A program made the position numbers and the translations under genes. DNA of 64,000 nt from Bacteroidota bacterium (GTDB taxonomy: Bacteria > Bacteroidota > Ignavibacteria > UBA10030): positions 8,882 to 72,881 of the forward strand of contig DATLYT010000110.1 of the NCBI GenBank assembly GCA_035574455.1, in the 5' to 3' direction. Shown here piece after piece: positions 7,934 to 35,857 of the stretch (position 1 is its first letter; every line of letters begins with the position of its first letter). The notes below the pieces were generated by a model. That model saw only the letters and a list, made by a program, of their open reading frames with translations. It did not search any database and had not been told where the DNA came from.

Positions 7934-8000
7934 CGTCAAATGAAGCAAACGGTAATCCTCGTGCAGTTTTGAGAACGCGACCGAGTCACACGAGGGCTTG

Positions 8001-16905: not shown

Positions 16906-19101
16906 TTAAAATGTATGATTCAACAGGTACCGAGCACTCACAAAGAATCCCCGCCCGCGTGTCGTAAAGCCGTTGATCTCAAGATACTTGGTATTGAAGA
17001 CATTTTCCACGCGTGCGGAAATCGACAGCTGGTCGCTCACCGCATAGTTCTGCACGAAGTCAACCACCGTGTAGGCATCGACAGGACGCGTTCCGAGCGC
17101 ACCGTAGGGACCGCGCTGGGCATCGTAGTACACATCCGGCCTTGCACCAGCATGGCGTAGGGCGAGTCGGGACATGAACTCCTCCGTTGGATGAAAGGTC
17201 ACAACCAGATTAGCGGTATTCGGCCTTCGGACGAGCTCCGCAGTTTCAACCGTACGAGTTAAGAACGCGCCGTTACTATAGAGCTGCACATGATGGCCTT
17301 GAGTCTTTTGCCGATCCAGGTTGCTCGGGTCATACCGGAGCTTTCCGGACACGAGGCTGAAGTTGCTGGAAAGCGACCAGACGTCGTTCAACCTTGCGTG
17401 AAGCGTGAATTCAAACCCGTCCGTTGTTTGCCTGCCGAGGTTGAGGTAGGTGTCGCCGCGGAAGTCATTCCGGCGAAAATCCGAGCCGAGCATCTCGATG
17501 GGAATATTTTGATTCCAGAGGTACACGTATTCGATGCTGTTGTTCACAACGGTGTGGAAGTAACTGGTGGTCATGCCAACGTCTTCACTCAGATCGATTT
17601 TCATTCCCAGTTCATACGACGAAGAAGATTCAGGCTGTAAGGCGTTGTTCCCGCGGGTGATGCCGGAAGAGAAATCCCGGTCGGGCGCGTAGAGTTGATA
17701 CAGCGATGGAGCACTGAAACCCATCGAGTACGACGCATACACCAGTCCGTGTTCGCTGACGCGGTAAGACGGATTCAGCTCCACACTGCGGTGATAGCCG
17801 AACGCATTGTGATGGGTCAGTCGAGCTCCAAGGCCGAGATTCCATTTCTGGAGTGCAGGATGGAACAACCCTCCCTTCATATCAAACCGTCCGAAAAGAT
17901 GTTTGACGGTCGCTTTCAGTCCCAGCGTATCGAGGTTTGTGGAAAATTCGAAGGGTCCGAAGATCGAGTTGGAGAAGAAATACGACTGCGAGCTCATGGT
18001 CTCCGCGTAGACTCCGCCGCCGAGAACGACCTCGAAGCGCGGATCCTGAACCACCGCCTGCACCTCGTGGGTGCTCATCGTGCCGGACCAGGCGTTTCGA
18101 GAATAGGTTTGGTCAGTTTTCCCGCTCGCGTCGACGACCGAAGAATCATCAACCGCCGTCCGCTTCATCTCCGAATATCCCCCGAGGAACTTCAAACGAA
18201 ATCGGTCGCTGAACCGATAGGAGGCACCGTAGGTGTACAGATAGCGAGAAAAATCCAACTTGGCGTTGTCATCGTCCCGGTAAGCCGCTTTGTCGATATC
18301 CTTCTCCTGGCGATGCCGTTTGAAGGCAACGTATGCATCCACCTCACGGTTGACAAATCCAACTTTACCGTAAAGATCCAGAGCATCCATTCCGTCCTTG
18401 TCGCGATTCTTGAAGGCAGACATCCGGCTCACGGTGTCGACGGTCGCATCGAGGCCGCGAACCCGATTGTTCACCGCTTCGAAGTTCGTGTAGAACCCGG
18501 ATGCTGTCGTCGCGTTGACAAACAGCTGCTGGCCAAAAAGCGATGTGCCGGATCCAAACGTTCCCGTCCAGATGTCTGCGTCGGCGTGAAGCCCCGGCGT
18601 CCATTGCTTGCGGGTGATCAGGTTGACCACACCGCCGACTGCTGACGAGCCGTAGAGTGTGCTGTGCGATCCGCGAACGATCTCGATGCGGTCAAAGCCA
18701 AACGGCAACAGCTCCGAGAGATCAAGGGCATTGTTCACACCCGACGGGTCGGTGATCCGCACATCATCGACAACGACCGCCGTTTGGTGACTCCCTGCCC
18801 CGCGCAGAAAGAGACTCTGTTGCGCGCCAAAGTTCTGGCCTGTTCCGACAATATACAAACCTTCTTTTTGAGAAATCGCTTCTGCTACGCTGTGGTACAC
18901 CGAACGCTTGACCTCATCGCCAAACAACACGCTCACACTGCGGCCTACCGTGCGCGGATCTCGTTCCGTGCGCGTCGCGGTAACAACGACTTCGGGCAAC
19001 CGGTAGGTTCTTACCGTATCTGGTGATACTGCTGGTTCCTGGGCACGTCCCTCAACCAGGATGAGGGCGCTGACAACCACGAGAAGTACAATGCTCTTCA
19101 T
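16906..19101 (-). CDS. btuB: TonB-dependent outer-membrane receptor, BtuB-like (putative corrinoid transporter).
   Basis: Signal peptide MKSIVLLVVVSALILVEGRAQ after a GGAGG ribosome-binding site. TonB box PEVVVTATR, plug and 22-strand barrel features, C-terminal ...NHTF. Preceded by a cobalamin riboswitch. The ATG at 19101 is preferred over the track start at 19326, which reads through the leader. Confidence 0.8.
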   Translation of the reverse strand: MKSIVLLVVVSALILVEGRAQEPAVSPDTVRTYRLPEVVVTATRTERDPRTVGRSVSVLFGDEVKRSVYHSVAEAISQKEGLYIVGTGQNFGAQQSLFLRGAGSHQTAVVVDDVRITDPSGVNNALDLSELLPFGFDRIEIVRGSHSTLYGSSAVGGVVNLITRKQWTPGLHADADIWTGTFGSGTSLFGQQLFVNATTASGFYTNFEAVNNRVRGLDATVDTVSRMSAFKNRDKDGMDALDLYGKVGFVNREVDAYVAFKRHRQEKDIDKAAYRDDDNAKLDFSRYLYTYGASYRFSDRFRLKFLGGYSEMKRTAVDDSSVVDASGKTDQTYSRNAWSGTMSTHEVQAVVQDPRFEVVLGGGVYAETMSSQSYFFSNSIFGPFEFSTNLDTLGLKATVKHLFGRFDMKGGLFHPALQKWNLGLGARLTHHNAFGYHRSVELNPSYRVSEHGLVYASYSMGFSAPSLYQLYAPDRDFSSGITRGNNALQPESSSSYELGMKIDLSEDVGMTTSYFHTVVNNSIEYVYLWNQNIPIEMLGSDFRRNDFRGDTYLNLGRQTTDGFEFTLHARLNDVWSLSSNFSLVSGKLRYDPSNLDRQKTQGHHVQLYSNGAFLTRTVETAELVRRPNTANLVVTFHPTEEFMSRLALRHAGARPDVYYDAQRGPYGALGTRPVDAYTVVDFVQNYAVSDQLSISARVENVFNTKYLEINGFTTRGRGFFVSARYLLNHTF

Positions 19102-19162
19102 ACAACCTCCGATAAATGATGGGTTGAACATTGGTACTTCGCGTGAACGATGGTTTGACTCC

Positions 19163-19200
19163 ACTATGCTCTCCAACAAAAAGCCCCAACCTTCCGAAGA
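19163..19200 (-). terminator. Intrinsic terminator (riboswitch expression platform) about 60 nt upstream of the btuB-like start codon.
   Basis: Minus strand reads GCCCCAATCTTC-TTCG-GAAGGTTGGGGC followed by TTTTTGTTGG: a 12-bp stem with a UUCG-like tetraloop and a U tract. Confidence 0.65.
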
Positions 19201-19289
19201 AGATTGGGGCAAGACTCGTGCAGAATGAGAATCAGCCACCTTCCCGCGAAGGCTTTCTGAAGATACATCGGCATGATTGAGCCGCCGAT

Positions 19290-19445
19290 GTGTTCGCGTC
19301 TGGCAGGTCTCCTGGCTCATGAGCATGACTGCAGTCGTACTCCCTTCCCATCCTTCGTGTACCTCCGGATAGTGGTTCTTCCGACTTTCTCATTTACAGT
19401 TGCGGGGCAGCTTCCGGTTTTCCGTCTGAAACGGATCACGGAATT
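19290..19445 (-). promoter_or_regulatory. Cobalamin (B12) riboswitch aptamer.
   Basis: Minus strand contains ..CCGGAAGCTGCCCCGCAACTGTAAATGAG.., then ..GGGAAGGGAG.., then the B12 box GAGCCAGGAGACCTGCC. These match conserved Rfam RF00174 core elements. It lies upstream of a TonB receptor with an intrinsic terminator between them. Confidence 0.8.
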
Positions 19446-19523
19446 CCCTTTTCATCCTCATCCCGATCTTAAGATCGGGAGAAGACACCAAACGCAGATG
19501 AAAAAGAACAAATGACCAACGCC

Positions 19524-22180: not shown

Positions 22181-23068
22181 TTAAGGCGCGGCGCGAAAGG
22201 TCAACGCCACTAGGTGATGTGGGGTAAGCAGGAGGAGTTTGCCATTCTGCAACACGACATCACGCAAGGGTGCAAGGGGAACGCTTGTAAGAATTGAGGA
22301 GACAAACAGCTTGGTTGTCAGTTTTCCGTCTTTCGAAAACCAATAGAGAACATCATCCGTCACCACCAAAAACCCCTGGGCATCGACGTCGAAGCCGCGG
22401 GCGCCCTGCAACAAACCTTCGCCGATGGTTCGGACAACATTGCCGAAATAATCGAATTCGACGATGCGATGGGGTTCAAGAACGTACACCCGGTCATCGC
22501 GCGACACCAGGATTTTCACGGGCTGCTGAAGCTTGCCCCGCTCCGACTCGATCCCCCCGAACGTGCGTTCCAACTGCAGTCGAGGGGTAAACTTGAGGAC
22601 ACGGGGATTTTCCGTCTCGAGTACGAACAGGTCACCCTGGCGCGAGAGTGCCACGCCCATCGGAAATCCAAACCGGACACGAGCAATGTTGGTGTCACGC
22701 GTCGTGAAGGTTGAGAGAAAATTCAGGTTGCGGTCGAACCGTTGGATACGGTGGTTGTTGTAGTCTGCCACGTAAAGGTTCAACCCGTCCGTTGTCAGAC
22801 CGGTGGGTCGGTCGAACGACGTCGTTCCCCAGCCAAAACCGCCGACCGAACGGGGTTGAGCAGTTGGACTGACGAAGCAATGCACACGATGGTCTTCCGT
22901 ATCGGCAACATAGATCCATCCCTGCGGACTCACGACAACCCGCGTCGCCGACGTAAACGAACCGAGGAAGTATTCTTCCTGGAGGAGGGTATCAGCCGGT
23001 GAGAGACCTTCCAGGTGCCCTGGACATTCTATCCCGACGAACAGCGCTACTGCAACAAGCGCTTCCAT
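22181..23068 (-). CDS. NHL-repeat beta-propeller protein.
   Basis: Repeated motifs of the YVADxxNHRIQRFD type (e.g. LYVADYNNHRIQRFD, DLFVLETENPRVLKF). The start overlaps the upstream GWxTD gene by about 22 nt if the ATG at 23068 is used. Confidence 0.65.
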   Translation of the reverse strand: MEALVAVALFVGIECPGHLEGLSPADTLLQEEYFLGSFTSATRVVVSPQGWIYVADTEDHRVHCFVSPTAQPRSVGGFGWGTTSFDRPTGLTTDGLNLYVADYNNHRIQRFDRNLNFLSTFTTRDTNIARVRFGFPMGVALSRQGDLFVLETENPRVLKFTPRLQLERTFGGIESERGKLQQPVKILVSRDDRVYVLEPHRIVEFDYFGNVVRTIGEGLLQGARGFDVDAQGFLVVTDDVLYWFSKDGKLTTKLFVSSILTSVPLAPLRDVVLQNGKLLLLTPHHLVALTFRAAP

Positions 23069-24411
23069 TCGTCATCCCTGATCTCGCCACGTTTCGTAGA
23101 ATGTACCAGGATGTATTCGCTAAAGCCCGAACGGTCGACAAAGACAAACTCCACACCGTTCTCGATCTGGTAGTAATGCCAGATTTCATGCGGCTTGGCG
23201 TTGCTCTGGCTGGGGAGTCGTTCGATCTCGTCCGGGTCGCCATAGAGAATGTACACCCGCCCGCGATCGGTCGTCCAACCTTCGCGCGTCTGGTTTCCGT
23301 ATCGCTGGTTGGCAATCGAGATACGTTGCAGGTAGTCCGAGCGACGGACAGGATTCTTGCCGGGTTTCCCCTTCTCCACCTCGGCCCAGAACTTCGATAA
23401 GAATTCGCGACGTGCTTCTTCGGTCGTCAACTTCGCGAAGGTTCGAATATCCTCATCCGCCGCGACGTACTGTGCTTTCCGAAATTCTGCGGCCAACTCG
23501 TCGGCGGTCATCCCGGCCAGCTCGCTCGCTTTGAGCGCAGCGGCACTCACCTGCGTCGGTTGAATGTGGGGATTGTAGATGTAGAATGTCTTATTCGTGG
23601 CGTGGAGAACCTTCCCGCCTTCATCCAACAACGAAACGACAAGATGGTACTTACCGGAACTGACCGAGGCCACATTGACCATGCCGACATCGACGGCATT
23701 CCGCACGCCGAATTTCCGCGGCTTGGAAGTTTCTTTCACTACTTTCCTCGACCCGTCAATCACCTGGGATTTGAGTGCATACTGGCGGTTGGGATCAAGG
23801 TTATACAGCTCGAGGTAATGAAAAACGACCGGACTACTCGTGACGCCGAAAACCAACGTGGCGTTTGGGACCACTTCGAGGGAATTCTTGTAAAACGCGT
23901 TGGTTTTATCGTCCGATGATTTGATCTCCGAGCACAGTTCTAAATCGCTCAACGCCGGCTCGCTACCGTAGGGCTTCACCGAAATAGGAACGTCGATGCT
24001 GTCTTGGCGCGAGGGCTGCAAAGAATCCGTCGCAAGCACATGAAGCCGATACTCTCCAAACGGCAACTGATATCCCGCCTGGCTAATGAACGTCGAGCGC
24101 GTGCCATTCCCGCTCGTATCGGCAACGGCAATCGGCAATAGCGACCGCTCGTGTTTGAGGACCTCACCCGTTGTGGCGTTCAACAGACGTACCTGCAGAA
24201 GGACGCCCCCGCGAAACACTCCCCCACTCTGTTCTAACGTGACCAGCCGAGGATAAAACCCGTAGTAGACCTCGACGTATCCACTCTGCTGGTCATACTG
24301 GAATCGGGCATAATCCACGTTGAGCACGAACGAATTCGACGCCGTCTGAGCGTGGAGGAAGCTGGCACAGAAAAATAATGTCACCAGCAAACGTTGAACT
24401 CTCGTGGTCAT
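23047..24411 (-). CDS. GWxTD-domain protein (secreted).
   Basis: Signal peptide MTTRVQRLLVTLFFCASFLHAQ. C-terminal GWxTD domain: ..NQTREGWTTDRGRVYILYGDPDEIERLP..HEIWHY..VFVFVDRSGFSEYILVHS. Confidence 0.7.
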   Translation of the reverse strand: MTTRVQRLLVTLFFCASFLHAQTASNSFVLNVDYARFQYDQQSGYVEVYYGFYPRLVTLEQSGGVFRGGVLLQVRLLNATTGEVLKHERSLLPIAVADTSGNGTRSTFISQAGYQLPFGEYRLHVLATDSLQPSRQDSIDVPISVKPYGSEPALSDLELCSEIKSSDDKTNAFYKNSLEVVPNATLVFGVTSSPVVFHYLELYNLDPNRQYALKSQVIDGSRKVVKETSKPRKFGVRNAVDVGMVNVASVSSGKYHLVVSLLDEGGKVLHATNKTFYIYNPHIQPTQVSAAALKASELAGMTADELAAEFRKAQYVAADEDIRTFAKLTTEEARREFLSKFWAEVEKGKPGKNPVRRSDYLQRISIANQRYGNQTREGWTTDRGRVYILYGDPDEIERLPSQSNAKPHEIWHYYQIENGVEFVFVDRSGFSEYILVHSTKRGEIRDDEWKRLLQ

Positions 24412-24439
24412 CGCTGCACTCCTTTGTCGGTACAATATA

Positions 24440-26790
24440 TCATCGTGCGAGGATGTTTGCAAGCAAGCGGAGGGCTCCCGCATGGATGTTCAACCACTGG
24501 TGCTGCAGGTCGAGGTCGATGTACGAGAAGCGCCCCTGCCCCACCGGTTTTGAAACCACGAGCGGCGTTCCCGTTCGACGTTCTTTCAGAAGCACTTCCC
24601 AGTCAGCGGCAGGGTCAAGACGAACGGTATTATAGCCGAGGCGGTAGAGCCAGAAGGACCAGTCCTCGCCTGTCAGATCGTTCAATGTTCGCAGAACCGG
24701 GTGAGAATGATCTATCACTACGGAGGATTGGGTACTCAAAGCAAGGGACCGTTCAAGGGTTATACCGCCAAGAATAGGGCGAGCATTCCAGGTGCGGTCA
24801 TCCTGTGGAAGAACCACGACATGACCACCCCTGCGAGCAAACTCTTCAATCTCAGTACTACGCTCCCGAATATCGGGTACCAATGTCCATACTCGCTGAT
24901 CGATCAGCAGCACGTCAAGGTCTCGGAGTTGTTCACTGAGATTGCCCGAAACGGCAATCATCCGCGCCGGAAGTCTGAGCCGACGCAAGGCATCCAAGGT
25001 CGGCGATGAGGAAACTCCAGGAATCATGCCGATCCGTTTCGTCGAATCCACACGAACCGAAAAACTCCGTACCACATACTGCGCGACCGAATCTTCACCG
25101 ATCTTCAGCGGCATCAGATAGCTTCCCTCCGGGAGCGGAGCAGGCCAGTTCAGCAACAGGGTGTCGGTCTGGGACGCCCCCTTCTGGCTCAGCCGGAACA
25201 TATGACGCGAGGAAGTGATGCGAACGTCATTGGCGTGGAGTGTATCGCGAACACCGTCACGCGAGTTATTCGTCAGACGAACGATCAACCGCTCGTCGGA
25301 AACCGTGTAGACAATCGGCGTCAATACCTCGATCGTGAAGCGAGGAGCAAATTGAAATGGGACAACTGTTCGGTGGACGAAATTTTCCTCTCGCCGCGCG
25401 GCTTTGTGAATAATAAAGACATAGAATGGCCGGAACAGCGAATGCTCCTGGAGACCGTATTGCCCGTGTGGTAACAGGTAGGGTTTTGCATCTTGCACGA
25501 CGAGGCGGTATGCTTCTTTGAGTTTCAGGGGGAAACGATTCTCCAACGCTTCGTTCAAAATCCAGCCCCGTCCGACCGCGGGGAAGAGAATTTCCGTTGT
25601 TCCGTTCGCGCTCAACCCCGTTACCGTATCGATCGCAAAATAGGTGATCTGATTGTCGGTCAGCACATACTCAGTATTGGTGTAGCGCACCGTAACACCA
25701 AGCAGAGCGAGGCGCAGGTTTTCGAGCCCCTCTTTCCACTGCAAGAGGACTTTGCGCTCGGCGGCCTGGGATTCGTACGCGCGGGCAAGCTGAACGTCTA
25801 CGGCATCGATCAGATCGGCGAGTTGAGTAAAAACTCTCGATGAACGTTGCGGGGCATTGACCTTACCCGGCGACTGTACGTACGGACGCGTGAGTGCATC
25901 GATCTGGTCGGCAAGAGGTTTGAGGGTCGCAGGGACGGCTTGCGGTAATCCCTGGTCGGGTCTGCGCAGTGCGGTAAGACTGCGAGGATGGATTGCCTGA
26001 TACCGCCTCGTCTGCTGCCAGAGAGAGCGCTGGATAGACAGCGACGCGTACTGTGCGGCGGCGTCATTGCCGATTGTCTCGTAACTTTTCTTCCAGAGCG
26101 GGTGAACGTCCTGAAGAGGGAAAGACAATCCTCGCTCAGAGCCATCCTCGACCAAAACGCGCCCGACTGACCAGAGGGGAAACGGAGGTAACTCGCGGGG
26201 CATTTTGCCACTCGGGTGAAACGAGAGGCGCTCAACAGCTCGAAGAATATCCTGTCGCATTCCTTCCCACCGGATACTCTGGCCCCGACTTTCTCGGTCG
26301 GCTGCAATCAGAATAACGTCGGGGCGAATTGTCGAAATTAACCGCATCAGTCGATACTGCACGCTATCACGAGGCCACTGTTGCCGAAGCTCTGTCGTAT
26401 CAGCTACTGCCGCGAGGTCCGGCAGGTTGAGAAAATAGACCTCTCCTCCAAGTACTCGTAACGCACTCGCCGCCTCCTCGCGTCGGACCGCAGCGAGGTG
26501 ATGCGGATACTCCGCGCGCAGGTCGCTTTCGCCCGCTTCGCCGTTGGTTACATAGGCACTTGTGATCTTCGCTCCTCGAGCGAAACGGAAATAGGCCAAT
26601 GCGGCCAAGTCTTCAAATCCGGGCTGGAGTGCAATGGAGAGCACCTGGAGCCGGCTGCGTACATCCACTGCACGCTGATAGATTGCCTCAGGTCCCGTTT
26701 CCGGGAAATACGTCGTTGACTTGGTTTGAGAGAAAAGATGGGGAGCCACAACGAGAATTGCGGCGGCTAAGAGGAGTTGAAAGAGACGCA
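24440..26790 (-). CDS. Large secreted protein (about 780 aa) with a degenerate LmbE/PIG-L-like deacetylase-fold N-terminal domain and a ThuA/class-I glutamine amidotransferase-like C-terminal region. Function unknown.
   Basis: Signal peptide MRLFQLLLAAAILVVAPHLFSQ (ATG at 26790 preferred over the track start at 26953). LmbE-like spacing with the first HPDDE motif replaced by QPGFED, followed by ..TNGEAGE..HHLAAVRREEAASALRVLG... C-terminal ..GGHVVVLPQDDRTW... Confidence 0.5.
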
Positions 26791-26858
26791 TAGTGCTGTC
26801 TAAATTCTGGAATAATGCTTTGGTATGCAAGACAAAATATGAACGACCTTGCTTTACG

Positions 26859-26988
26859 AGGGCTACCATAATGTCGCCGCTACCGCGGCTACCATTCATA
26901 ATGTTGTTTGGGCTACTACCATAATGCCGCCCCTGACGGGGCTTCCATCTCAACGCTCTTGATATGCTACCAACATTTCGTCCCTACG
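26859..26988. repeat. Dispersed repeat element, family 3, copy 2 (with an internal duplication of the GGCTACCATAATG(C/T)CGCC motif).
   Basis: Shares the GGGCTACCATAATG.CGCC and CTACCAACATTTCGTCCCTACG ends with 19564..19645. Confidence 0.5.
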
Positions 26989-26995
26989 AAACTAT

Positions 26996-27330
26996 TCTTT
27001 GCGCCCTTTGCGGTTATTTCCTTAACCGCCAAAAACGCAAAGAGCGCTAAGGTGAAAAACCAGCCTCTTTTTTCAAACGCTCTGCGTCGAAACGGCACCG
27101 GCAAGAGCCCTACACTGCCTTTTTTGAGATTCTTCGCTTCGCTCAGAATGACAAGAGACTGCGGTTCTTTGCACCCTTTGTGGTTAACTCCCTAATCGCC
27201 AAGAACGCAAAGGACGCTAAGGTGAAAAGCCAGCTATTTTTTCCCACGCTCCGCGTAGGAACACTGGGGGAAGACGTCCCTTTCCGTTCAGACGGAGACC
27301 GTCGGAACGAGAAAAACAAAAGGCTGTCCC
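26996..27330. repeat. Tandem direct repeat (two ~165-bp units, about 75-80% identical), each built from nested inverted repeats and carrying a family-2-like segment.
   Basis: Unit 1 begins ctttgcgccctttgcggttatttccttaaccgccaaaaacgcaaagagcgctaaggtgaaaaaccagc... Unit 2 begins ctttgcaccctttgtggttaactccctaatcgccaagaacgcaaaggacgctaaggtgaaaagccagc... The spurious ORFs 26908..27195 and 27180..27419 both translate AKNAK.AKVK.Q. Confidence 0.55.
27243..27314. repeat. Dispersed repeat element, family 2 (two hairpins: GTTCCCACGCgGAGCGTGGGAAC and TTCCGTTCCGACGGTCTCcGTCGGAACGGAA), copy 1.
   Basis: Reverse-complement match to 38744..38824. Both spurious ORFs translate the peptide PTLRVGTL...PFRSD.DRRNEK. 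Confidence 0.55.
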
Positions 27331-27350
27331 GAGCAATCGGAACAGCCTTT

Positions 27351-27402: not shown

Positions 27403-28449
27403 TTAGAACCCTAACTTAATCGAGATCACCTGGTTGGCGTCGAAGAATTCCACCTGGCGGTATGCATAGTCGAGCATAATGTCCAGGCCGGACGCCATGT
27501 AGCCGAATCCGAACCCGAACGTGCCGCCGAAGATGTTCTCCTTCTCTTCCGCCTGAGGAACCATGCCAAGACCGGCACGACCGAAGATGCGGAGCGATTC
27601 CATCGTGATACCCACCTCGCCGCCGAGACGATACTCGTCAAGGTAGAGGTTGTTGTTCGTGAAGGAACCAGCCAGATTCCACGTCATATTGTCGGCCATT
27701 GTGCCGGAATAACCCAGACCGATCTCGACAATCGACGGTAACTCGAAGCTCGCTGCTTCGCTCTTGAAGCGCTGCTCCGGGCGTTGACCTTCCGTCGGAC
27801 GTGCGGATCGGTACAAACCGGACCCGTCGTACTTCATCTGCGGACCGATGTTCTTCACGGTCACGCCGAGGTTCAGGCCGGGCACACCGACCAAGCCATG
27901 GTACTGCACGCCGAAGTCGAGTGCAAAACCGGAAGCGCTTACCCGGTCGATCTGCTCCGAAATGATTTTCGCCGTGATACCGGCAGAGACCGCATCCGTT
28001 AGCGCACGGGAGTAGCTCATCCCGACCGTCACGAACGTCGGTGAGAAGAAGCGGCCGGCGGTATTCTCCGGGTCGTCTTCCGTTGTGAGCGGAATGTCAC
28101 CAAAGTTGAGCGCCTTCACACTCAATGCGATCACACCGAAGTCCCCAAACGACGCTCCCACTGCACCGTAGTTGACCGCAATATCGGCGATATAGCTCAT
28201 ATTCGAAAACATACCCTCGGCGGAATGGGCCATCCGGCCAAGTCCTGCCGGGTTCCAGTGGATCGCTTCCAACCCGCTGGTGGTAGCAATACTGGAGCCA
28301 CCCATCGCGAGGTCGCGACCACCGACCGGAATCAGCAGCTCAGGAGCCGCTGCCGTTCCGATCCTTTTATTCTGCGCGCTGACGCTCTCCACCACGACCG
28401 CAAGCGCCACGCAGAGGACCACTGCTGTCAGAAAAAGTTTCTTACTCAT
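27403..28449 (-). CDS. T9SS-associated outer-membrane beta-barrel protein, PorP/SprF-like (alternatively PorV-like).
   Basis: Signal peptide MSKKLFLTAVVLCVALAVVVESVSAQ after an AAGGAGA ribosome-binding site. N-terminal ..AIHWNPAGLG.. motif (NPA-type motif of the PorP/SprF family). Beta-barrel-like alternating pattern, C-terminal ..ISIKLGF. Encoded immediately downstream of a large T9SS cargo gene, as with sprB-sprF. Confidence 0.6.
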   Translation of the reverse strand: MSKKLFLTAVVLCVALAVVVESVSAQNKRIGTAAAPELLIPVGGRDLAMGGSSIATTSGLEAIHWNPAGLGRMAHSAEGMFSNMSYIADIAVNYGAVGASFGDFGVIALSVKALNFGDIPLTTEDDPENTAGRFFSPTFVTVGMSYSRALTDAVSAGITAKIISEQIDRVSASGFALDFGVQYHGLVGVPGLNLGVTVKNIGPQMKYDGSGLYRSARPTEGQRPEQRFKSEAASFELPSIVEIGLGYSGTMADNMTWNLAGSFTNNNLYLDEYRLGGEVGITMESLRIFGRAGLGMVPQAEEKENIFGGTFGFGFGYMASGLDIMLDYAYRQVEFFDANQVISIKLGF

Positions 28450-28562
28450 GGTTGTTTCTCCTTGTTTTCTATTTCGGTTCATGAACATAGCGTTGCCCGC
28501 CAGAATGTGTAGCGGGCTGGCCCGCCTCTCCGCCAGAGGCGGAGAGGCGGACTCTGCGTGGC

Positions 28563-31500
28563 TTAGTACGAATCAAGAACTTCCTGTTCTTGAATGATCG
28601 CTAGCTTCAGAACCTTCGTCACGCCGAGATCCGGCATGTCGATGTGAACAATGTAGATACCGCTGGCCACCGGGAACTGCGCGTGGTTGTTCAGATCCCA
28701 GCGGAAGAATTGCGACGCATCGTCTTTTTCCAGCGTGCGCACCAACTGGCCGGCAAGGTTGAAGATGCGGAAAGTCGCCTTGCGTGGCAGGTTGTTGAAC
28801 GTCACGAACCGGAAGAAGCGGTTGGTTTCCGCCGCGTTAAACGCATAATACGGATTCGGGAAGACGCCAACCTTCTCGGCACTCGCCTTCTCCAACTCTA
28901 AGCCGGACTGCGGTGCGGGTGTAGTGTACGTGAAGACCGTCGACGGCGTATTCACATGGTTCGCGTAGATCTGGAACTCATTCGTGCCCGTCGGCTCATC
29001 CCACCGGTTGTCCGCCCGACGATTGAATGTTGCCCACCACATAACAGGCAGACCGTTGTTGATGATGTTCACCTGCAACGTTGGATCCGGCGTGGAACCC
29101 GTATAGGGCTTGTTGAAAATAAAGAGCCATTCGCGTGGTCCGGATGTTGCCACGTTGTCCTGTACGCCGTTCGAAGGCGGGTAGTACCTGCCATCCACCA
29201 AACCACCGGCGACGTTATTCTCCAGATGGCCCACCGCCAATCGCTGCGGAGGATTGGCCTCCGTATTCCACGCTGAGAGAGGCACACTGATTTTGTAATC
29301 ATTGTAACCGTATGATCCCTGCGTATGATTCGTCAGGTAAGGAGCGAACTCCGGCCTTGCTGGCGATGTCCCACCTCGTACATAGCGATAGCCATACGAA
29401 AAGTTGGGGTCTGTGCTCGTATTGAGATCCCAACCACCATAGGGACTCGACCCATTCGTCTGTGTCGAGGCGCTGGCCTGTCCAAACCGCAAGAGAACGT
29501 CCTTCAATTCATGCGCCTTAACAGTTCGGTCTGTTGTACTCCCAAAATAGTGTGCAGGATCATCCCAACCAATCGTACCTTCAAACCCTTCGAATCCCAA
29601 ACCTTGAGCATCGGCAAACGTGATGCGACGGTTTCCTTTCGGTACCGCCCAGTCTTTCATGCCGGGAGGGGGACCCTCGACCTTCAGGAAGATACCGCCT
29701 TCGACGATCTTGTAGTTCTCGTCGCCGCTCTGGTTAGTTTCACCCGAGAGGATCGTTCGGTTCTGTGTCTTGTTGATGAGGCTCCACGTTGTATTGCCAC
29801 CGCCGGCATCGGCGAATCGGATCTCATATGTATGGCCAGTGCTCGCGGTTGGGTCGACGACGATCGGACGAGCCGTACCATCGCTCACACCAGTCTTCGT
29901 CACTCGCAACGTATCGCCAAACTTCGCGCCGTAAACCTTGCCAAACGGTACTTTGGGTCGGACAGTCAACACGATGGCATCGGACTCCAGCACAGAAGGC
30001 AAGAAGCCCGGCACCGTGGCAACACTGTACGCCGTTACGGCAAGGTAATATTCCTGACCGTTGTAAATCTTTTCGATGTCTCGGAGGTAATCCCGCTTGA
30101 AGTTGAAGAAGCGCACAACACCGCTGTTCGAACCGAACTGCACGGGTAGTCTCAAGATCTGCCCGGAGTTCTGGTCGAACTGCTCATCCAGAACAACGGT
30201 CGGGTCTGCTGGCGTATCATAGGTAACGATACGTTTCGCTTCGGAGAGCCTCGCACCGCGGCTCGGGAGCTGATACACATTGTATCCCTCAAAGCGGTAT
30301 GCACCGGGTTGAGCGATACGGTTTTCAATATCACTCACACGCTGCAGGTTGCTGCCCCACTCGATAATAACCTGACCGTCAAGCTCAGCCACCTTCACGT
30401 CTGGCGGCAAGGGCGGCTTCGGTACCTGGAACAGTGCGTTGAAGGTGTTCTGTACAAAGCGGTCGTTAAATTTCATCACAGCAACGCTGGAGAGACGGTC
30501 CGCGCCGAGACCGGCGACGGTACCAATATAGATTTCCTGCGTATCACCGGGCGCCATGCGGAAAGGACCGGTGTTCAACAGAATACGGCGATCGCCGGGA
30601 GCGAAGGAATAGAGCGTTCCCTGACCATCAAGGAATCCTGTGCGGTTCACAGGGTCGCCGGACAGTGGGAACTTCGTGATGCTCGCTCCGGGAGGATGGT
30701 TGTACGGCTGATCCGGGTCGGTAATGGAACCCAACGGAGCAAAACCGCGTAACATCTTATACCAACGGCCTGTGCCGAGTGAATACGCACCAGAGCCGCC
30801 GGGAGGGTCGGAGTACGGACTGCCGGCGGAGAAGTAAGCAAAGGACGACATGCCGAGATTCCTGAAGCCCGGCCGATACTTCAAGTCAAACACCGCCGTG
30901 CTATTGGCATCCGGAACGAGCGGTCCCGCGAGGAAGTCGTACGCAGCCGAGGGCGGCGCCAGACCGAACTTGCGGAACGTATCGTCGTTTGCATTGCCGT
31001 TGTAAATGAAACCAATGCTCAAGGTACTGTCGCAACCCGCTAAGTCATCACTGAACGATCCGAGGTCGGGGTCGGACCACTGGCAGACATACATCTCATC
31101 GATATGGAAGGCGCCCTTTTGCCCGCCACCGATGTCGACACCGCCTTTGTTGATGATCTTGTAACGGGAAAAGTAAAGGTTGCCAAGAGCGTCGGTGCGT
31201 TTGTATGCCCAGACGGTCTTTTGGATCTCGAGACCGATCGGCTCAGAACCGACGAAGCCCAAGGCCTGGCTCCGGTCGAGGTCGTTGTACACCGTCCAGA
31301 TGACCTGGTCGGCTGGGGAATTCGGGTCGGCACCCGCAACACCCGGCTCGTCCCGATTCTGTGCAATCAAGCTGTCGACAGTGAAGGTTGCGCTAAATGC
31401 GGGCGGAGGATCATAGCGTCCGTTACCGTTGCGGTCGATGTATGGCGCGCCGAGGTCGACCGGCCATTCTTTCCAGTCCTTGTCATACTGGGCAATCATC

Positions 31501-32066
31501 GCAGCGATGGCCGCGTCGGAGACTTCCGTCGGAGTTGTTTCGTTGTAGTATGCGGCATCCTGTCGCGCTTCTGTTGCGGACATGGAGGCATAATCCCTAC
31601 GGATACGGTATATGCGTGCACGGGCATCATTGGGGTTAACGGCTGCTGCCGTTGCTCCAAGGCCTGTGACCCAGCCTTCTTTCGTACCGACGCCGTATGT
31701 TCCACCGCCGACTCGGATGGGTTGCAAGGAAGCAGGAGTTCCACCCGCGCCGGGGAATCCACCGACATAGACACGACCGCCGAAGACAACACCATCTTGG
31801 TAAATGACGTTACCTGTGCCCTTCGGGTAGTACATCCCGTTGTCGGCTCCCGGTGAGTGGTTGGACTGTCCGTCACTTCGGAACCACGCCGTGAGGTTGT
31901 TAATGCTAATGAGACCGTAGCGAGGTGTGCCTGCCGCTTTATACAGCGACTGCTTCTCGCCCGGCTTGGTCTTATCCGGTCCGTCAGACGCAAATGCGAA
32001 CGACCATGCGAGGACGCTCAGCACAGCGACTGTCAGAGCCGGAATTGCAATGGATATTTTTCTCAT
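28563..32066 (-). CDS. Large (about 1167 aa) T9SS cargo protein of unknown function with a C-terminal Por_Secre_tail domain.
   Basis: Signal peptide MRKISIAIPALTVAVLSVLAWSFAFA after an AAGGAG ribosome-binding site. C-terminus ..GVFPNPYYAFNAAETN..ATFRIFNLAGQLVRTL..GIYIVHIDMP... No recognisable catalytic domain. Confidence 0.8.
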   Translation of the reverse strand: MRKISIAIPALTVAVLSVLAWSFAFASDGPDKTKPGEKQSLYKAAGTPRYGLISINNLTAWFRSDGQSNHSPGADNGMYYPKGTGNVIYQDGVVFGGRVYVGGFPGAGGTPASLQPIRVGGGTYGVGTKEGWVTGLGATAAAVNPNDARARIYRIRRDYASMSATEARQDAAYYNETTPTEVSDAAIAAMIAQYDKDWKEWPVDLGAPYIDRNGNGRYDPPPAFSATFTVDSLIAQNRDEPGVAGADPNSPADQVIWTVYNDLDRSQALGFVGSEPIGLEIQKTVWAYKRTDALGNLYFSRYKIINKGGVDIGGGQKGAFHIDEMYVCQWSDPDLGSFSDDLAGCDSTLSIGFIYNGNANDDTFRKFGLAPPSAAYDFLAGPLVPDANSTAVFDLKYRPGFRNLGMSSFAYFSAGSPYSDPPGGSGAYSLGTGRWYKMLRGFAPLGSITDPDQPYNHPPGASITKFPLSGDPVNRTGFLDGQGTLYSFAPGDRRILLNTGPFRMAPGDTQEIYIGTVAGLGADRLSSVAVMKFNDRFVQNTFNALFQVPKPPLPPDVKVAELDGQVIIEWGSNLQRVSDIENRIAQPGAYRFEGYNVYQLPSRGARLSEAKRIVTYDTPADPTVVLDEQFDQNSGQILRLPVQFGSNSGVVRFFNFKRDYLRDIEKIYNGQEYYLAVTAYSVATVPGFLPSVLESDAIVLTVRPKVPFGKVYGAKFGDTLRVTKTGVSDGTARPIVVDPTASTGHTYEIRFADAGGGNTTWSLINKTQNRTILSGETNQSGDENYKIVEGGIFLKVEGPPPGMKDWAVPKGNRRITFADAQGLGFEGFEGTIGWDDPAHYFGSTTDRTVKAHELKDVLLRFGQASASTQTNGSSPYGGWDLNTSTDPNFSYGYRYVRGGTSPARPEFAPYLTNHTQGSYGYNDYKISVPLSAWNTEANPPQRLAVGHLENNVAGGLVDGRYYPPSNGVQDNVATSGPREWLFIFNKPYTGSTPDPTLQVNIINNGLPVMWWATFNRRADNRWDEPTGTNEFQIYANHVNTPSTVFTYTTPAPQSGLELEKASAEKVGVFPNPYYAFNAAETNRFFRFVTFNNLPRKATFRIFNLAGQLVRTLEKDDASQFFRWDLNNHAQFPVASGIYIVHIDMPDLGVTKVLKLAIIQEQEVLDSY

Positions 32067-32158
32067 AACTCGAAACTCCTTGATTGTGTTGGTGAAACTG
32101 ATTGATCGTGATAAGATGGACTCCACCTCGAAGGTAGAGCCCATCTTCTCCGCGTCTG

Positions 32159-35100
32159 CTACATTTCGAGTTTTAACCCGACGATGATCTGTCGCGGGGG
32201 ACCGAAGAGGTCACCACCAGCCTGTTGACCAAGACCGCCACCTGCACCAATGCTGGTGTAGGCATACCGGTTGTTCAGGTTAATGGCGCGATAGAATGCC
32301 TCGTAGTTCGGGATTTCCCGGTACGGGGTGGCAAACGGACTTTTCAGCCAGCCATCGTCGTACGGTGTTCCGGTCGTCGGATACACATTGAGAATCTGTT
32401 TCGTGTTGAACAAGTTCAGCACGCGAGCATAGAGCTCCACATTGCCAAAGTCCATGAAGAAGACCTTGCTCACGTTCAGGTCAACGTTGAACACCCACGG
32501 TGTCGTGGATGCGTTAATCGGCTCCACGGGGTTACGGCCGCGAGAGTCTTGCAACGCTCGAACGCCGATGAACCAGGGGCTGGCCTGACCCAGGTTGTGT
32601 GGCTCACGAATCTTCGTGTAGTTATGCCCGCTGTTGAAGGTGAGCAGGAAGTTCGCTCCCATCCCCTCTAAAATTGCTCCACCGTCGCCCTTGCCAAAGC
32701 GGTAGTCCACAAAGATCGTCCCTTTGTGCGTCTGGTTGTAATCCAAGGGGTTGATGAAGTTCGGGAAGCGTGCACTGGCTTCGTCCGTCACGGCGTTCTG
32801 TGAAGAACGGGAAGTCGAACCTGTTCCGCGTGCGTCGGAAAGCGTGTAGTTCACGCGCGCCGCCAAACGATTCGTGCGGCGGAGCTCAAGCGTCAACTCC
32901 AGCCCCTTGACGGTACCGAAATCTTCGTTAAAGAATCCGACGGAGATCGGGAGACCCTGGGAGTTGAAAATTCTCCGAAGTTGGAGCTGGTCTTTCAGGT
33001 CTTTATAGAAACCGGAAACGGTGAGGGCAAAGTTATCCGTCAAGGTCTGTCGGATACCCATCTCGTACTGCGTATTGCGCTCCGGTTTTGCTGTGAACGG
33101 AACGGCGGAAGCACCGAGGTTGTAGGGCGTCCGTGTTGACGGGTTCAAGCGTTGGCTCAACGTCACGTTGTCCATAATCAGCTGGTCCATGCTGGGAAGC
33201 TGCGCGTACTTGCCGTATTGAGCGTAGAACACGGTTTTGTCAGTCACCGGGAAGGCAAAGTTCAACCGCGGCAGCAGATAGCTGAACGGCTCGGACTCTG
33301 TGATCTTATCTTCCTCGATGATACCCAACGCAGCATCAACCGGTGGTTCATTATAATCCGGCTGGCCGGTAATCGGGTTGATCGTCATCGGAACGGTCGG
33401 AATCTTCGGTGAGAAGTATTCAAACCGGGCACCGATGTTGAGAATCAAGTCGCGGTACTCGAACTTGTTCTGAATGTATGCAGCGGCAAACAGAGGCGTC
33501 CGCGGTCCATCAAGCGTTGCACTCCGGCCACCACCCAAATCGTAGGTCTGACCATCCGACTCATTGCCATCGAGATCGTAACCGATGTTGGTAATGGTCG
33601 CACGCTGCAGCCGCACACGGCGCTCATATTCGCTCGCAAACGTACGGTCAATCACACCATCGCGGTTCGGGTCGAGGAAGATCCAGTAAGTCTGCGCATT
33701 CACACTAAATGTGCGGTACGTCCATGAATCGATACTGCCGCCCGCCTTCAACTCCCATCGAGGATTGATCTGCGACGTAAAGTCTAACGTCACGCCAAAT
33801 TGTCGAGTATTGCTTTTACCGTAGCCTGTATTGGGAGAGAAAGGATGGGGGAAACCTGCTGAACTGGGGAACTGGAAGATCGTGCTATAGCCGAATGGGC
33901 CTTCGTAGCGATTACGCCATTCGTTCGTAGGATATCCTTTGGCAGCGTACGCCACGCTGTCGGAATAGGATTTCCAGTCGTCCTGGAAGTCCTGGTCAAA
34001 ACTCCGGCCGAAGCGGTTCTGATAGGAAAGACCGACTTCGTAAAACGTGGTTGGACCGAGAATGTGCGTTAAGCGGACGTTTCCAAAGACCGTCTCGACT
34101 TCACTGTGCGATAATGTCCGCGGATCTCGGAAGTAGTTGACTAAATTTCCTGGCCACGAGGTGCCGTTGGGCGAACGAAAATACGAATAGCTACCACTGA
34201 ATTTCACCTTCAACGGGAGTTGGGACATCTGGTTCAGATCGAACAAGAGTGTTCCGATACCCGAGTTCGTGTATGTCCAGTTGTTGTACAGGTAGTTGCG
34301 TTTATACTCAATAGTGCCGTCATAGTTGCCGTCGCCGTCGGCATCCCGCGGGAGGAACAGACCTTCCGGCCGGTTGCCCAGAGCATCCGTCTTGAGACCC
34401 TCAAACTTGAACGGTTCGATGAACCTCCTGTCGGATTGGCGCGTGTAATTGTGCTGACCGGTCAGGAAGAAGCGGATACCGCTGGTCAGCGGGCCGCCGA
34501 CCGTCAACACGGCGTTGCGGTAGCCAAATGCCGTCGTGCCGAGGAACGTGTCGCCGGGCTTGGCAAAATCATCCGTCTGATAATCTAATGTCCATTTTAG
34601 TTCAGGACCCCCAGTGCGGAGGGATGTACGGACGACACCGGATGCCGCACCGCCAAACTCTGCCGTGTAACCGCCGGACTGGAGTTGGAATTCCTCAATC
34701 GCTTCTTGAATGACCCCAACGTTTTGAGAATTGGTGATGGGATTCGTCACGTTTGCACCATCGATAAAGTACGCCACCTCACCCGCTCGACCGCCACGGA
34801 CATACAGCCGTCCGTCACGCTCCACAACACCCGCTTCGAGAGCAAGGAAGTTGCCCAAACCGCGCAGCGGTAAGTTTCTGATATTCTCTTGGGTGTTGAT
34901 ACGGACGGTGTTGGTGGTATTGCGTTGAATGAGGGGACGCTCGGCAACGACTTCGATTTCCCGTGTCTGGATAGCGGTACTGGAGAGCTGGAAATCCTGG
35001 GTCGTTGTCAGGTTTGCACTGACGCGGACGTTGGCGACCGTAACCGCCGAGTAGCCGATATACGATGCCTTCACTGAATAGGCACCGGGCGGCACACTCA

Positions 35101-35290
35101 GAATGATGTACTCGCCGTTGACATCCGTGGAGGAGCCAAGTGTCGTACCTTCAATGATCACGTTGGCACCGATGAGCGGCTCGCCCGTTTGACTGTCCGT
35201 CACCCGGCCACGCAACTTCCCTTCCTGTGCAAACAGGAATGCCGGGAGGACAAGCAACAGGGTCAAAGCCATCAAGAGCTTGCGGTACAT
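32159..35290 (-). CDS. TonB-dependent-receptor-like outer-membrane protein (SusC/RagA-like architecture) with an N-terminal carboxypeptidase-regulatory-like domain. No SusD partner.
   Basis: Signal peptide MYRKLLMALTLLLVLPAFLFAQ after an AAGGAGG ribosome-binding site. CarbopepD_reg motif GRVTDSQTGEPLIGANVII, then a plug region (..NIRNLPLRGLGNFLALEAGV..RGGRAGEVAYFIDG) and a long barrel. 1043 aa. Confidence 0.8.
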   Translation of the reverse strand: MYRKLLMALTLLLVLPAFLFAQEGKLRGRVTDSQTGEPLIGANVIIEGTTLGSSTDVNGEYIILSVPPGAYSVKASYIGYSAVTVANVRVSANLTTTQDFQLSSTAIQTREIEVVAERPLIQRNTTNTVRINTQENIRNLPLRGLGNFLALEAGVVERDGRLYVRGGRAGEVAYFIDGANVTNPITNSQNVGVIQEAIEEFQLQSGGYTAEFGGAASGVVRTSLRTGGPELKWTLDYQTDDFAKPGDTFLGTTAFGYRNAVLTVGGPLTSGIRFFLTGQHNYTRQSDRRFIEPFKFEGLKTDALGNRPEGLFLPRDADGDGNYDGTIEYKRNYLYNNWTYTNSGIGTLLFDLNQMSQLPLKVKFSGSYSYFRSPNGTSWPGNLVNYFRDPRTLSHSEVETVFGNVRLTHILGPTTFYEVGLSYQNRFGRSFDQDFQDDWKSYSDSVAYAAKGYPTNEWRNRYEGPFGYSTIFQFPSSAGFPHPFSPNTGYGKSNTRQFGVTLDFTSQINPRWELKAGGSIDSWTYRTFSVNAQTYWIFLDPNRDGVIDRTFASEYERRVRLQRATITNIGYDLDGNESDGQTYDLGGGRSATLDGPRTPLFAAAYIQNKFEYRDLILNIGARFEYFSPKIPTVPMTINPITGQPDYNEPPVDAALGIIEEDKITESEPFSYLLPRLNFAFPVTDKTVFYAQYGKYAQLPSMDQLIMDNVTLSQRLNPSTRTPYNLGASAVPFTAKPERNTQYEMGIRQTLTDNFALTVSGFYKDLKDQLQLRRIFNSQGLPISVGFFNEDFGTVKGLELTLELRRTNRLAARVNYTLSDARGTGSTSRSSQNAVTDEASARFPNFINPLDYNQTHKGTIFVDYRFGKGDGGAILEGMGANFLLTFNSGHNYTKIREPHNLGQASPWFIGVRALQDSRGRNPVEPINASTTPWVFNVDLNVSKVFFMDFGNVELYARVLNLFNTKQILNVYPTTGTPYDDGWLKSPFATPYREIPNYEAFYRAINLNNRYAYTSIGAGGGLGQQAGGDLFGPPRQIIVGLKLEM

Positions 35291-35644
35291 AGAATGCCTC
35301 CTTAACTATGTGGTAGTGAGGTACTGATGGGAGTTTCTACTGCGTGCCGATGATTAGGAGATGCCACCGGCGAGCATTCGAAGGAAACTTTATCAATTGT
35401 CCCGTTTCTTACACTGTCAACATCTTAGCGCCGACAGCTAAGGTGAGCCTCACCTCCTAACTTGAAGAACAACGGGTGATAGGGATGTTTTGAGTTGCAA
35501 AAATATACAGGACGACTTCTTCTTTGTCAAGTCTTTTCTACGCCTTTAAAAAAGCTTCGAACCGTAGAAAACAAGAAAAATTTGCCTTTTTCGTCAAAAA
35601 TATCGTTTTCAAGAAAAAAAGTAACTACTCAGCGTAAATAAAAA

Positions 35645-35683: not shown

Positions 35684-35712
35684 TTGAGACTTCTGAAAAA
35701 TGAAATAGGAAT

Positions 35713-35751
35713 GTCATTCTGAGGATCCGCCTGAGGCGGACTCAGAATGAC
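35713..35751. repeat. Family-1 palindromic element (GTCATTCTGAG-gatccgcctgaggcgga-CTCAGAATGAC). Possible bidirectional terminator downstream of serA.
   Basis: Perfect 11-bp outer inverted repeat around an inner CCGCC/GGCGG hairpin. On the minus strand it is followed by TCCTATTTCATTTTT. Confidence 0.5.
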
Positions 35752-35857
35752 AAGAGACTTGGAATTTTTCAGAAGTCTCGCGGTTACATTTTTTTCTCGG
35801 TGTTTTTGAGCAAATCAGTTTAACGTTAAAAATACGCTGAGTGGATACGAAAAAACG

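Follow-up and report, generated by a model that had tools for sequence, protein, structure and literature searches.

A conserved three-gene module linking a TonB-dependent transporter gene with genes for a T9SS sorting-domain protein and a PorV/PorQ-family barrel

Layout of the g1-g2-g3 locus

The DNA analyzed here is a 64,000-nucleotide window from a Bacteroidota bacterium (assembly GCA_035574455.1, contig DATLYT010000110.1), and all positions are given as positions in that window. Within it we studied three genes, here called g1, g2 and g3, which lie as three separate open reading frames (ORFs) on the minus strand between positions 27403 and 35290. By fold and family, they encode a TonB-dependent transporter, a large beta-rich protein with a type IX secretion system (T9SS) sorting domain and a barrel of the PorV/PorQ family. 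Together they form a strongly conserved module that has been duplicated as a unit. The best explanation that we can offer for this module, held with roughly even confidence, is that g2 is exported by the T9SS, anchored by g3, and captures or processes a ligand for import by g1. The genes and the C-terminal sorting domain (CTD) of g2 are as follows:

32159–35290, minus strand: g1, TonB-dependent transporter, 1043 residues
28563–32066, minus strand: g2, 1167 residues from the ATG with a ribosome-binding site (longer ORF 28563–32144, 1193 residues)
28566–28874, minus strand: T9SS CTD of g2, residues ~1065–1167 (TIGR04183, PorZ model, PDB match)
27403–28449, minus strand: g3, 348 residues (longer ORF 27403–28488, 361 residues)

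An earlier interpretation of the window made without database searches (hereafter the sequence-only reading) had placed three co-oriented genes here, and their outer limits were correct (ORFs 32159–35290, 28563–32144 and 27403–28488, all on the minus strand). The AAGGAG-type ribosome-binding sites that it reported were also present ahead of all three genes, 6–9 nucleotides 5' of ATG 35290, ATG 32066 and ATG 28449. As the site of g2 precedes ATG 32066 and not ATG 32144, g2 is 1167 residues long and not 1193 as had been assumed, and the likely products of the trio are therefore 1043, 1167 and 348 residues. The alignment of g2 homologues starts at the methionine of ATG 32066, and public gene calls on identical contigs give 1167 residues for g2 in two of three cases and 348 residues for g3. 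With the starts that carry ribosome-binding sites, the gaps are 92 nucleotides between g1 and g2 and 113 nucleotides between g2 and g3, in place of the 11–70 nucleotides first estimated. A signal peptide was identified on all three products, that of g2 being visible from M27 of the 1193-residue ORF, and no lipobox cysteine was found in any of them.

Identity of g1

Pfam identified a CarboxypepD_reg domain in g1 (PF13620, 70 bits) at about residues 24–103 (nucleotides 34982–35221) and a Plug domain (PF07715) at residues ~122–225 (nucleotides 34616–34927), the latter scoring 25.6 bits against a threshold of 23.9. A signal peptide, an N-terminal extension and a disordered linker precede the plug, which is followed by a barrel with some 22 strands (residues 232–1043). 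In the AlphaFold2 model (predicted local distance difference test score, pLDDT, 81.4; predicted template modelling score, pTM, 0.77), taken with the Pfam and Foldseek results, g1 has the N-terminal plug within a 22-strand beta-barrel that characterizes TonB-dependent transporters. Foldseek matched it to the classical TonB-dependent transporters PirA, PfeA, FusA, HasR and BtuB (E values from 1e-26 to 1e-30; target template modelling, TM, scores of 0.63–0.80). In the linker that joins the N-terminal extension to the plug, a TonB-box-like segment, EIEVVAERP, was recognized by eye at residues ~110–118. R118 was invariant, A116, P119, L120 and I121 were at least 90% conserved, and the g1 orthologues had 52–92% identity.

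The sequence-only reading had described g1 as a SusC-like barrel of 1043 residues. The CarboxypepD_reg domain, the plug and the transporter fold bore this out, but the family assignment did not survive: we rejected membership of the SusC/RagA family because the TIGR04056 model failed (64.1 bits against a cutoff of 368), matching the N-terminal extension only (residues 25–149). SusC/RagA chains were also absent from the best 50 structural matches found by Foldseek. The extension itself was seen in PDB matches to RagA and to a SusC homologue. No adjacent SusD/RagB partner was found, as the product of g2 is all-beta and has neither a SusD_RagB match nor a lipobox cysteine. Judged by its modelled fold, g1 is a TonB-dependent transporter with a SusC-type N-terminal extension that stands outside the SusC family.

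Sorting domain and body of g2

Searches of Pfam, NCBIfam and PDB sequences identified nothing in the body of g2 besides the CTD, in keeping with the earlier description of the protein as a signal peptide plus a T9SS sorting domain. The CTD scored 28.3 bits against TIGR04183 (cutoff 23), which, together with the N-terminal signal peptide, marks g2 as a protein with a type A sorting domain. The PorZ model NF052228 matched g2 in the CTD only (35 bits against a cutoff of 260, E = 4e-9), and the CTD of PorZ (5m11) was the sole PDB sequence match for a profile of 71 g2 sequences. The CTD was also the best-conserved region of g2, with a mean top-residue frequency of 0.76 versus 0.54–0.72 elsewhere. 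Past its last strand is a 9-residue tail, QEQEVLDSY (codons at 28566–28592, minus strand), conserved as QEQEVLDxY, in which Q1159 was invariant and E1160 and E1162 were at least 90% conserved. The PorZ CTD stops at its final strand, without a tail of this type. The tail of g2 could be an extra recognition element for a cognate barrel.

The AlphaFold2 model of g2 (pLDDT 87.7, pTM 0.70) was nearly all beta, with the CTD as a beta-sandwich. Its predicted domains are a central galactose-mutarotase-like supersandwich, Ig/FN3-like domains and the type-A-like CTD. The absence of a recognizable catalytic domain, noted in the sequence-only reading, held up in this confident all-beta model, which did reveal a supersandwich domain unseen by sequence searches; neither an (alpha/alpha)6 domain nor any other catalytic domain accompanied it. 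Whole-chain Foldseek searches returned only matches of Ig/FN3/macroglobulin type, PorZ and a weak match to PorU. The best-conserved stretch of the body contains an invariant acidic cluster (D332, D334, D340, D341, D346 and D361).

Two known T9SS components were considered as identities for g2 and rejected. A PorU-type cysteine sortase was excluded because no Cys or His was invariant or at least 90% conserved among the 71 g2 sequences; there was also no catalytic fold, no PorU or Peptidase_C25 match in Pfam or NCBIfam, and the structural match to PorU (6za2) had E = 9e-4 and a TM score of 0.07. PorZ was rejected as g2 did not reach a full-length NF052228 match and has no beta-propellers. Neither Pfam nor NCBIfam has a model for the body of the g2 family, whose members carry the label "T9SS type A sorting domain-containing protein" or are called "hypothetical". 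Distant relatives have ordinary CTDs and join the g2 body to BNR/sortilin propellers, to PKD plus dockerin or to Ig modules. Such fusion partners are characteristic of degradative or surface-binding proteins and may hint at the nature of the ligand.

Family assignment of g3

g3 scored 145.5 bits against NF033709, the PorV/PorQ family model (cutoff 90), over profile positions 1–325 of 326, and 37.9 bits against Pfam PorV (threshold 27). It also matched Flavobacterium johnsoniae PorV, whose structure is solved (6h3i_F, E = 3.7e-12). The NPAG motif and the length of 348 residues reported earlier were confirmed: a WNPAG motif aligned with the WNPA of PorV, ATG 28449 has its ribosome-binding site, and the C-terminal residue is Phe. 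The scores of g3 were below the equivalog cutoffs for PorV (66.7 against 250), PorQ (83.8 against 220) and PorV2 (64.8 against 325), and its profile matches thus place it as a distinct branch within the PorV/PorQ family.

In the sequence-only reading g3 was a PorP/SprF-like barrel, and we considered whether it could be an adaptor of that type for g2, as SprF is for SprB in F. johnsoniae. A cargo gene with a small-barrel gene behind it does resemble sprB-sprF, where the cargo has its own outer membrane barrel that fixes its secretion and final localization (PMC12618676), and PorP/SprF proteins have been described as PorV-like barrels (PMC10202324). However, neither TIGR03519 nor PF11751 matched g3 at E <= 0.1 in the NCBIfam and Pfam searches, against the 145 bits for the PorV/PorQ family. 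In addition, the g2 CTD is type-A-like by TIGR04183, whereas PorP/SprF shuttles serve type B CTDs, for which the cognate shuttle sets secretion and localization; type A CTDs are all described as going via PorV (PMC12618676). The SprB-SprF system also involves no transporter. The adaptor explanation is thus refuted at the family level, and we give it almost no credence, while the broader notion of a shuttle or anchor specific to one cargo lives on in our own model. Since g3 belongs to the PorV/PorQ family and SprF-SprB concerns type B CTDs, we regard PorQ-PorZ as the right precedent for g2 and g3.

Distribution and conservation of the triad

Word-sharing searches with g2 identified 699 relatives, the best 120 of which were 52–89% identical to it and about 1160 residues each. 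An exhaustive profile search with g2 gave 2,586 clusters (50% identity) at E <= 1e-30, and the homologues across several phyla had 35–89% identity. A genome scan with one genome per species identified at least 567 loci; neighborhoods were retained from 80 of these, holding 89 g2 copies. The retained loci are from Ignavibacteria (Ignavibacterium album and Melioribacter among them), KSB1, Calditrichota, Marinimicrobia, Latescibacterota, Gemmatimonadaceae and Handelsmanbacteria, and many of the carriers are metagenome-assembled genomes labeled "Bacteroidota". I. album and Melioribacter roseus (loci L045 and L062) are cultured carriers of the triad.

Synteny was strong across phyla, as the sequence-only reading had anticipated. 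An orthologue of g1 was directly upstream of g2 in 64 of the 73 copies with room upstream, and a g3 orthologue was directly downstream in 58 of the 73 with room downstream. In one Ignavibacteria metagenome-assembled genome the entire triad is duplicated in tandem (L004, 6891–23168), the copies of g1, g2 and g3 being 60, 68 and 61% identical, respectively, and the three genes having diverged to much the same extent. Tandem copies of triads, or of g2 alone, were also found in L008, L030, L037, L053, L075 and L078, the last of which (Calditrichota) has a triad followed by two more g2-like genes. Several assemblies contributed 2–3 loci each. The pairwise identities of g1, g2 and g3 co-vary (r = 0.86–0.89), as expected for joint inheritance, a relationship that is confounded by phylogeny. 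The earlier proposal of a T9SS cargo with its own barrel beside a TonB importer was therefore sustained by the synteny and by duplication of the triad, although the pair is not of SprF/SprB type and, as the three genes are separate, nothing is "fused to" the import barrel.

Proposed function and alternatives

In Porphyromonas gingivalis, PorZ keeps its CTD and is held at the surface by PorQ, a paralogue of PorV, and a role in protecting CTDs against cleavage has been proposed for cognate barrels of PorV type (PMC10947112, PMC10202324). By analogy, g2 would pass the inner membrane via Sec and, after T9SS export, its CTD would stay uncut and bound to the g3 barrel, tethering g2 to the cell surface as PorQ does PorZ. 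The surface-exposed, beta-rich body of g2 would then bind or process an external ligand, and the product would enter through the neighboring g1, powered by TonB.

Based on the g2 CTD being PorZ-like, better conserved than any other region of g2 and tailed, and on its gene being followed by a private, co-duplicating PorV-family gene, g3 would be a dedicated shuttle and anchor for g2. Such conservation of the CTD, with its additional tail, is more in keeping with a lasting protein-protein interface than with a signal that is discarded. As g2 is linked to an apparently functional g1 and has a sugar-type fold, a capture or processing protein that feeds the importer is the most economical model, in which the linkage of their genes suggests that g2 would pass its ligand to g1. 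The ligand is probably a glycan, as the supersandwich domain is of a carbohydrate-enzyme type. The presence of multiple triads per genome (2–3) is like that of nutrient-uptake loci and unlike single-copy machinery.

Several observations weigh against this model. The g2 CTD scored 15 bits against a threshold of 27 for Pfam PF18962 (Por_Secre_tail), and must therefore be considered divergent. The conservation of g2 (35–89% across phyla) is very high for a surface nutrient binder and would suit a structural or machinery role too. The flanks of the triad are without glycoside hydrolases or sugar-catabolic genes, unlike a classical polysaccharide utilization locus; its neighbors are housekeeping genes (serA, serC and the rpoA cluster) and genes of PIG-L-like and GWxTD proteins. 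The triad follows closely downstream of a housekeeping block (38929–63893, minus strand) that comprises a large ribosomal-protein/RNA-polymerase cluster (rpoA/rplQ), a GTPase gene, serC and serA. This position, which is kept in several relatives (e.g., L004, L007, L029 and L034), is unusual for an accessory nutrient-uptake locus. Of two distant g2 relatives whose neighborhoods were examined, neither is beside a transporter, one being solitary (P0362) and the other in a cohesin/dockerin/cadherin cluster (P0297). As it occurs in such transporter-free neighborhoods, the g2 body is not intrinsically a transporter-docking module, need not be the partner of a transporter and has an activity of its own.

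A further point against the model is a second class of g1-g2 pairs in which g3 is missing and g1 has about 900–930 residues and no N-terminal extension. The g2 of this class is often without residues ~800–1030. Six loci (L015, L016, L036, L046, L066 and L082) were compared with 47 full triads for the co-occurrence of the extension and g3. The extension of g1 tracked g3 (47/48 versus 0/5, Fisher p = 2e-6), the counts not being phylogenetically independent. It may simply be that there are two subfamilies, or the extension may be linked in function to the PorV paralogue.

The same co-occurrence would also agree with g1 working outward and helping to export or assemble g2. In Myxococcus, Oar is needed for secretion of PopC, and Oar-type transporters have an N-terminal CarboxypepD_reg domain and about 1000–1100 residues, both of which g1 resembles. 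However, the Oar-like barrel model PF25183 had no match to g1 in Pfam at E <= 0.1, the T9SS sorting domain of g2 already gives it an export route, and g2 relatives exist without an adjoining transporter. We therefore consider an Oar-like role for g1 very unlikely.

It is also conceivable that g2 and g3 are part of the T9SS machinery in lineages other than Bacteroidia, as an analogue of PorZ-PorQ or PorU-PorV in which g2 presents a glycan or lipopolysaccharide (LPS) and g1 is an associated component and not an importer. The closeness of the g2 CTD to that of PorZ, the very high conservation and the housekeeping position by ribosomal, rpoA and serA genes would all be consistent with this, and a sugar-binding-type fold could bind the glycan of LPS. 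g2 is also similar to PorU in size, and a PorV-family gene comes after it, as in the porU-porV gene order of Bacteroidota. Against these points, g2 has neither the conserved Cys or His nor the caspase-like alpha/beta domain of a PorU-type sortase, and it lacks PorZ-like beta-propellers, matching the PorZ model (35 against 260 bits) through its CTD only. Diverged multiple copies, tandem duplications and a subclass without g3 would be atypical of single-copy core machinery, and the tight coupling to a TonB-dependent transporter would be left unexplained. A machinery role thus appears quite improbable to us.

Alternatively, g2 could be a structural surface protein, an adhesin or coat held by g3, with g1 serving as an outer membrane platform for co-assembly and importing no ligand. 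The all-beta, Ig/FN3-rich architecture and high conservation of g2 would suit such a protein, as would the occurrence of its relatives within cohesin/dockerin/cadherin surface-assembly clusters, and a Shine-Dalgarno-like box in the g1 leader (described below) would suit a very abundant, stable mRNA. However, g1 retains a complete plug, the TonB-box-like segment and the N-terminal extension, as active transporters do, and the central supersandwich domain of g2 is typical of sugar-handling proteins and not of coats. Weighing these, we think a structural role unlikely, and we retain as our working model that g2 captures or processes a ligand for import by g1.

Comparison with known systems

In the literature searched we found no description of the g1-g2-g3 triad. 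Each component is of a known kind or resembles one; their combination, and the anchoring principle that we propose, are new. The nearest precedent for g2 and g3, the PorQ-PorZ attachment complex of the P. gingivalis T9SS, likewise has a PorV-family barrel dedicated to one T9SS-exported protein whose retained CTD is the anchor, and the g2 CTD is closest to that of PorZ as g3 is a PorV/PorQ-family member. The systems differ in the body of g2, which lacks beta-propellers and is not related to PorZ beyond the CTD, and in g3, whose 84 bits are under the 220 of the PorQ equivalog cutoff. The genes of g2 and g3 are also adjacent to one another and to that of a TonB-dependent transporter, are multi-copy in some genomes, and are found mainly outside Bacteroidia.

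The resemblance to SusC/SusD (RagA/RagB) lies in a transporter of about 1000 residues with a carboxypeptidase-regulatory-like extension, encoded immediately upstream of its surface partner, and in paralogous expansion and inheritance as units. By contrast, g1 fails the family model (64 against 368 bits) and its barrel is nearer to those of classical siderophore- and protein-binding transporters. g2 is an all-beta non-lipoprotein, whereas SusD is an alpha-helical TPR protein, and g2 would be anchored via a T9SS CTD and a PorV paralogue. On our model, the triad would be a functional analogue of SusC/SusD or SusC/SusG in which T9SS export and anchoring to a PorV paralogue replace the lipid.

Compared with SprB-SprF, the triad pairs a PorV/PorQ barrel with a type-A-like CTD in place of a PorP/SprF barrel with a type B CTD. 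The BamG-BamH pair of the Bacteroidota BAM complex is similar in that a FadL/PorV-like 14-strand barrel forms a fixed platform for a surface-exposed protein (PMC12578637). However, g3 scored only 27 bits against the BamG model (cutoff 250), and BamH is a lipoprotein and not a T9SS cargo, with a role in outer membrane protein assembly.

More broadly, these comparisons raise the prospect, to which we give somewhat less than even confidence, that many lineages of the Fibrobacteres-Chlorobi-Bacteroidetes (FCB) superphylum that do not belong to class Bacteroidia (Ignavibacteria, KSB1, Calditrichota, Marinimicrobia, Latescibacterota and Gemmatimonadota) build complexes of transporter and surface partner differently from the SusC/SusD lipoprotein solution. 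The triad suggests how phyla without SusD-type surface lipoproteins could give TonB-dependent transporters a surface partner. In the T9SS field, type A cargo is at present pictured as using one general shuttle, PorV, and PorQ-PorZ is treated as an exception (PMC12618676, PMC10202324). A widespread pairing of type-A-like cargo with its own PorV paralogue would make cognate anchoring common. If the prospect above holds, cargo-specific PorV-family anchors would be a general principle for type-A-like CTDs and no PorQ-PorZ oddity, and an uncharacterized family of more than 2,500 clusters (50% identity) would become a new class of surface proteins that capture or process ligands. The presence of a PorV paralogue would also be tied to the periplasmic N-terminal extension of the transporter, and g2-g3 would be a natural system for studying the protection of CTDs from cleavage. 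With I. album and Melioribacter as two cultured carriers, the model is directly testable.

Transcription signals and the g1 leader

The following candidate signals flank or separate the genes:

35502–35530, minus strand: sigma-70-like promoter candidate, TTGACA-17-TATATT, 11/12 consensus positions, ~210 nucleotides upstream of the g1 start
35451–35460, minus strand: extended Shine-Dalgarno-like box TTAGGAGGTG in the g1 5' leader, 167 nucleotides upstream of the ATG
28495–28552, minus strand: two GC-rich hairpins without a U-tract in the g2-g3 spacer (RNA folding)
27319–27350, minus strand: intrinsic-terminator-like hairpin, a 14-bp stem followed by a T-run, at the end of the three-gene unit (terminator scan)

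The promoter-like arrangement TTGACAAAG...TATATTTTT, a match to consensus only, was also aligned in loci L069 and L084. The site after g3 (27350–27319) was the sole T-tailed terminator-like site of the unit. Based on the promoter-like site upstream of g1, the ribosome-binding sites at all three starts and the location of this terminator only after g3, the arrangement is compatible with a single transcription unit, within which attenuation or processing may occur. The g2-g3 spacer had a predicted fold of -50.1 kcal/mol (z = -5.69), with none of 200 shuffled sequences as stable, and its hairpins were not called by the terminator scan. They may be attenuators, processing sites or elements like repetitive extragenic palindromes (REP). 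An 11-mer, GAGTCCGCCTC, is common to the first of these hairpins and to a hairpin just downstream of serA (11-mer at 35733–35743; hairpin region 35700–35760, minus strand). As the window contains just these two copies, the 11-mer does not represent a repeat family.

The TTAGGAGGTG box is a nearly full complement of the 3' end of 16S rRNA, with no start codon or ORF behind it. Among 52 leaders of g1 orthologues, 16 had a distal GGAGGTG box, compared with an expectation of ~0.035 per leader. Boxes known as STAB-SD stabilize mRNAs in Bacillus, and the g1 leader box resembles them. From its sequence, the distal AAGGAGGTGA box could be an mRNA stabilizer of STAB-SD type, a 30S-binding element or a ribosome standby site. 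The whole g1 leader folded no better than shuffled sequence (z = -1.2), and an Rfam scan identified no known RNA element in the leader or the spacers.

Neighboring genes and other features of the window

Downstream of the triad is a separate transcription unit of conserved neighbors, identified through Pfam and NCBIfam:

22181–26953, minus strand: conserved downstream neighbors
24440–26953, minus strand: PIG-L-like exported protein (837-residue ORF; likely start M55, opening a signal peptide)
23047–24483, minus strand: GWxTD-domain protein
22181–23068, minus strand: NHL-repeat protein

These PIG-L, GWxTD and NHL genes were found 3' of the triad in many phyla (L001, L011, L013, L027–L029, L034, L043, L053 and others). 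The PIG-L neighbor occurs in the closer relatives, and GWxTD is found also in Melioribacter, Caldithrix and Calditrichia. By eye, the HPDD metal-binding motif of the PIG-L-like protein is replaced by QPGFED, and the protein may therefore be inactive. PDB sequence searches with the PIG-L-like and GWxTD proteins were uninformative, and no mention of GWxTD was found in the literature searched.

The only Rfam hit of the scan was a cobalamin riboswitch (RF00174, 94 bits, 19285–19507), which is directly upstream of a gene for an 806-residue BtuB-like TonB-dependent receptor (16906–19326, minus strand). Together these form an ordinary B12-uptake unit (16906–19507).

Next to each other at 3293–7948 and 8001–13655, both on the minus strand, are the genes of two giant T9SS cargo proteins, and their presence in the same window as the triad indicates that the organism uses the T9SS. 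The 1551-residue protein has three cohesin domains together with FN3, Big_2 and IPT domains, and the 1884-residue protein has beta-helix/NosD repeats, a dockerin and a cohesin. The pair suggests a cellulosome-like cohesin-dockerin surface assembly that a non-Firmicute exports through its T9SS. A distant g2 relative with a dockerin occurs in a comparable cluster (L091).

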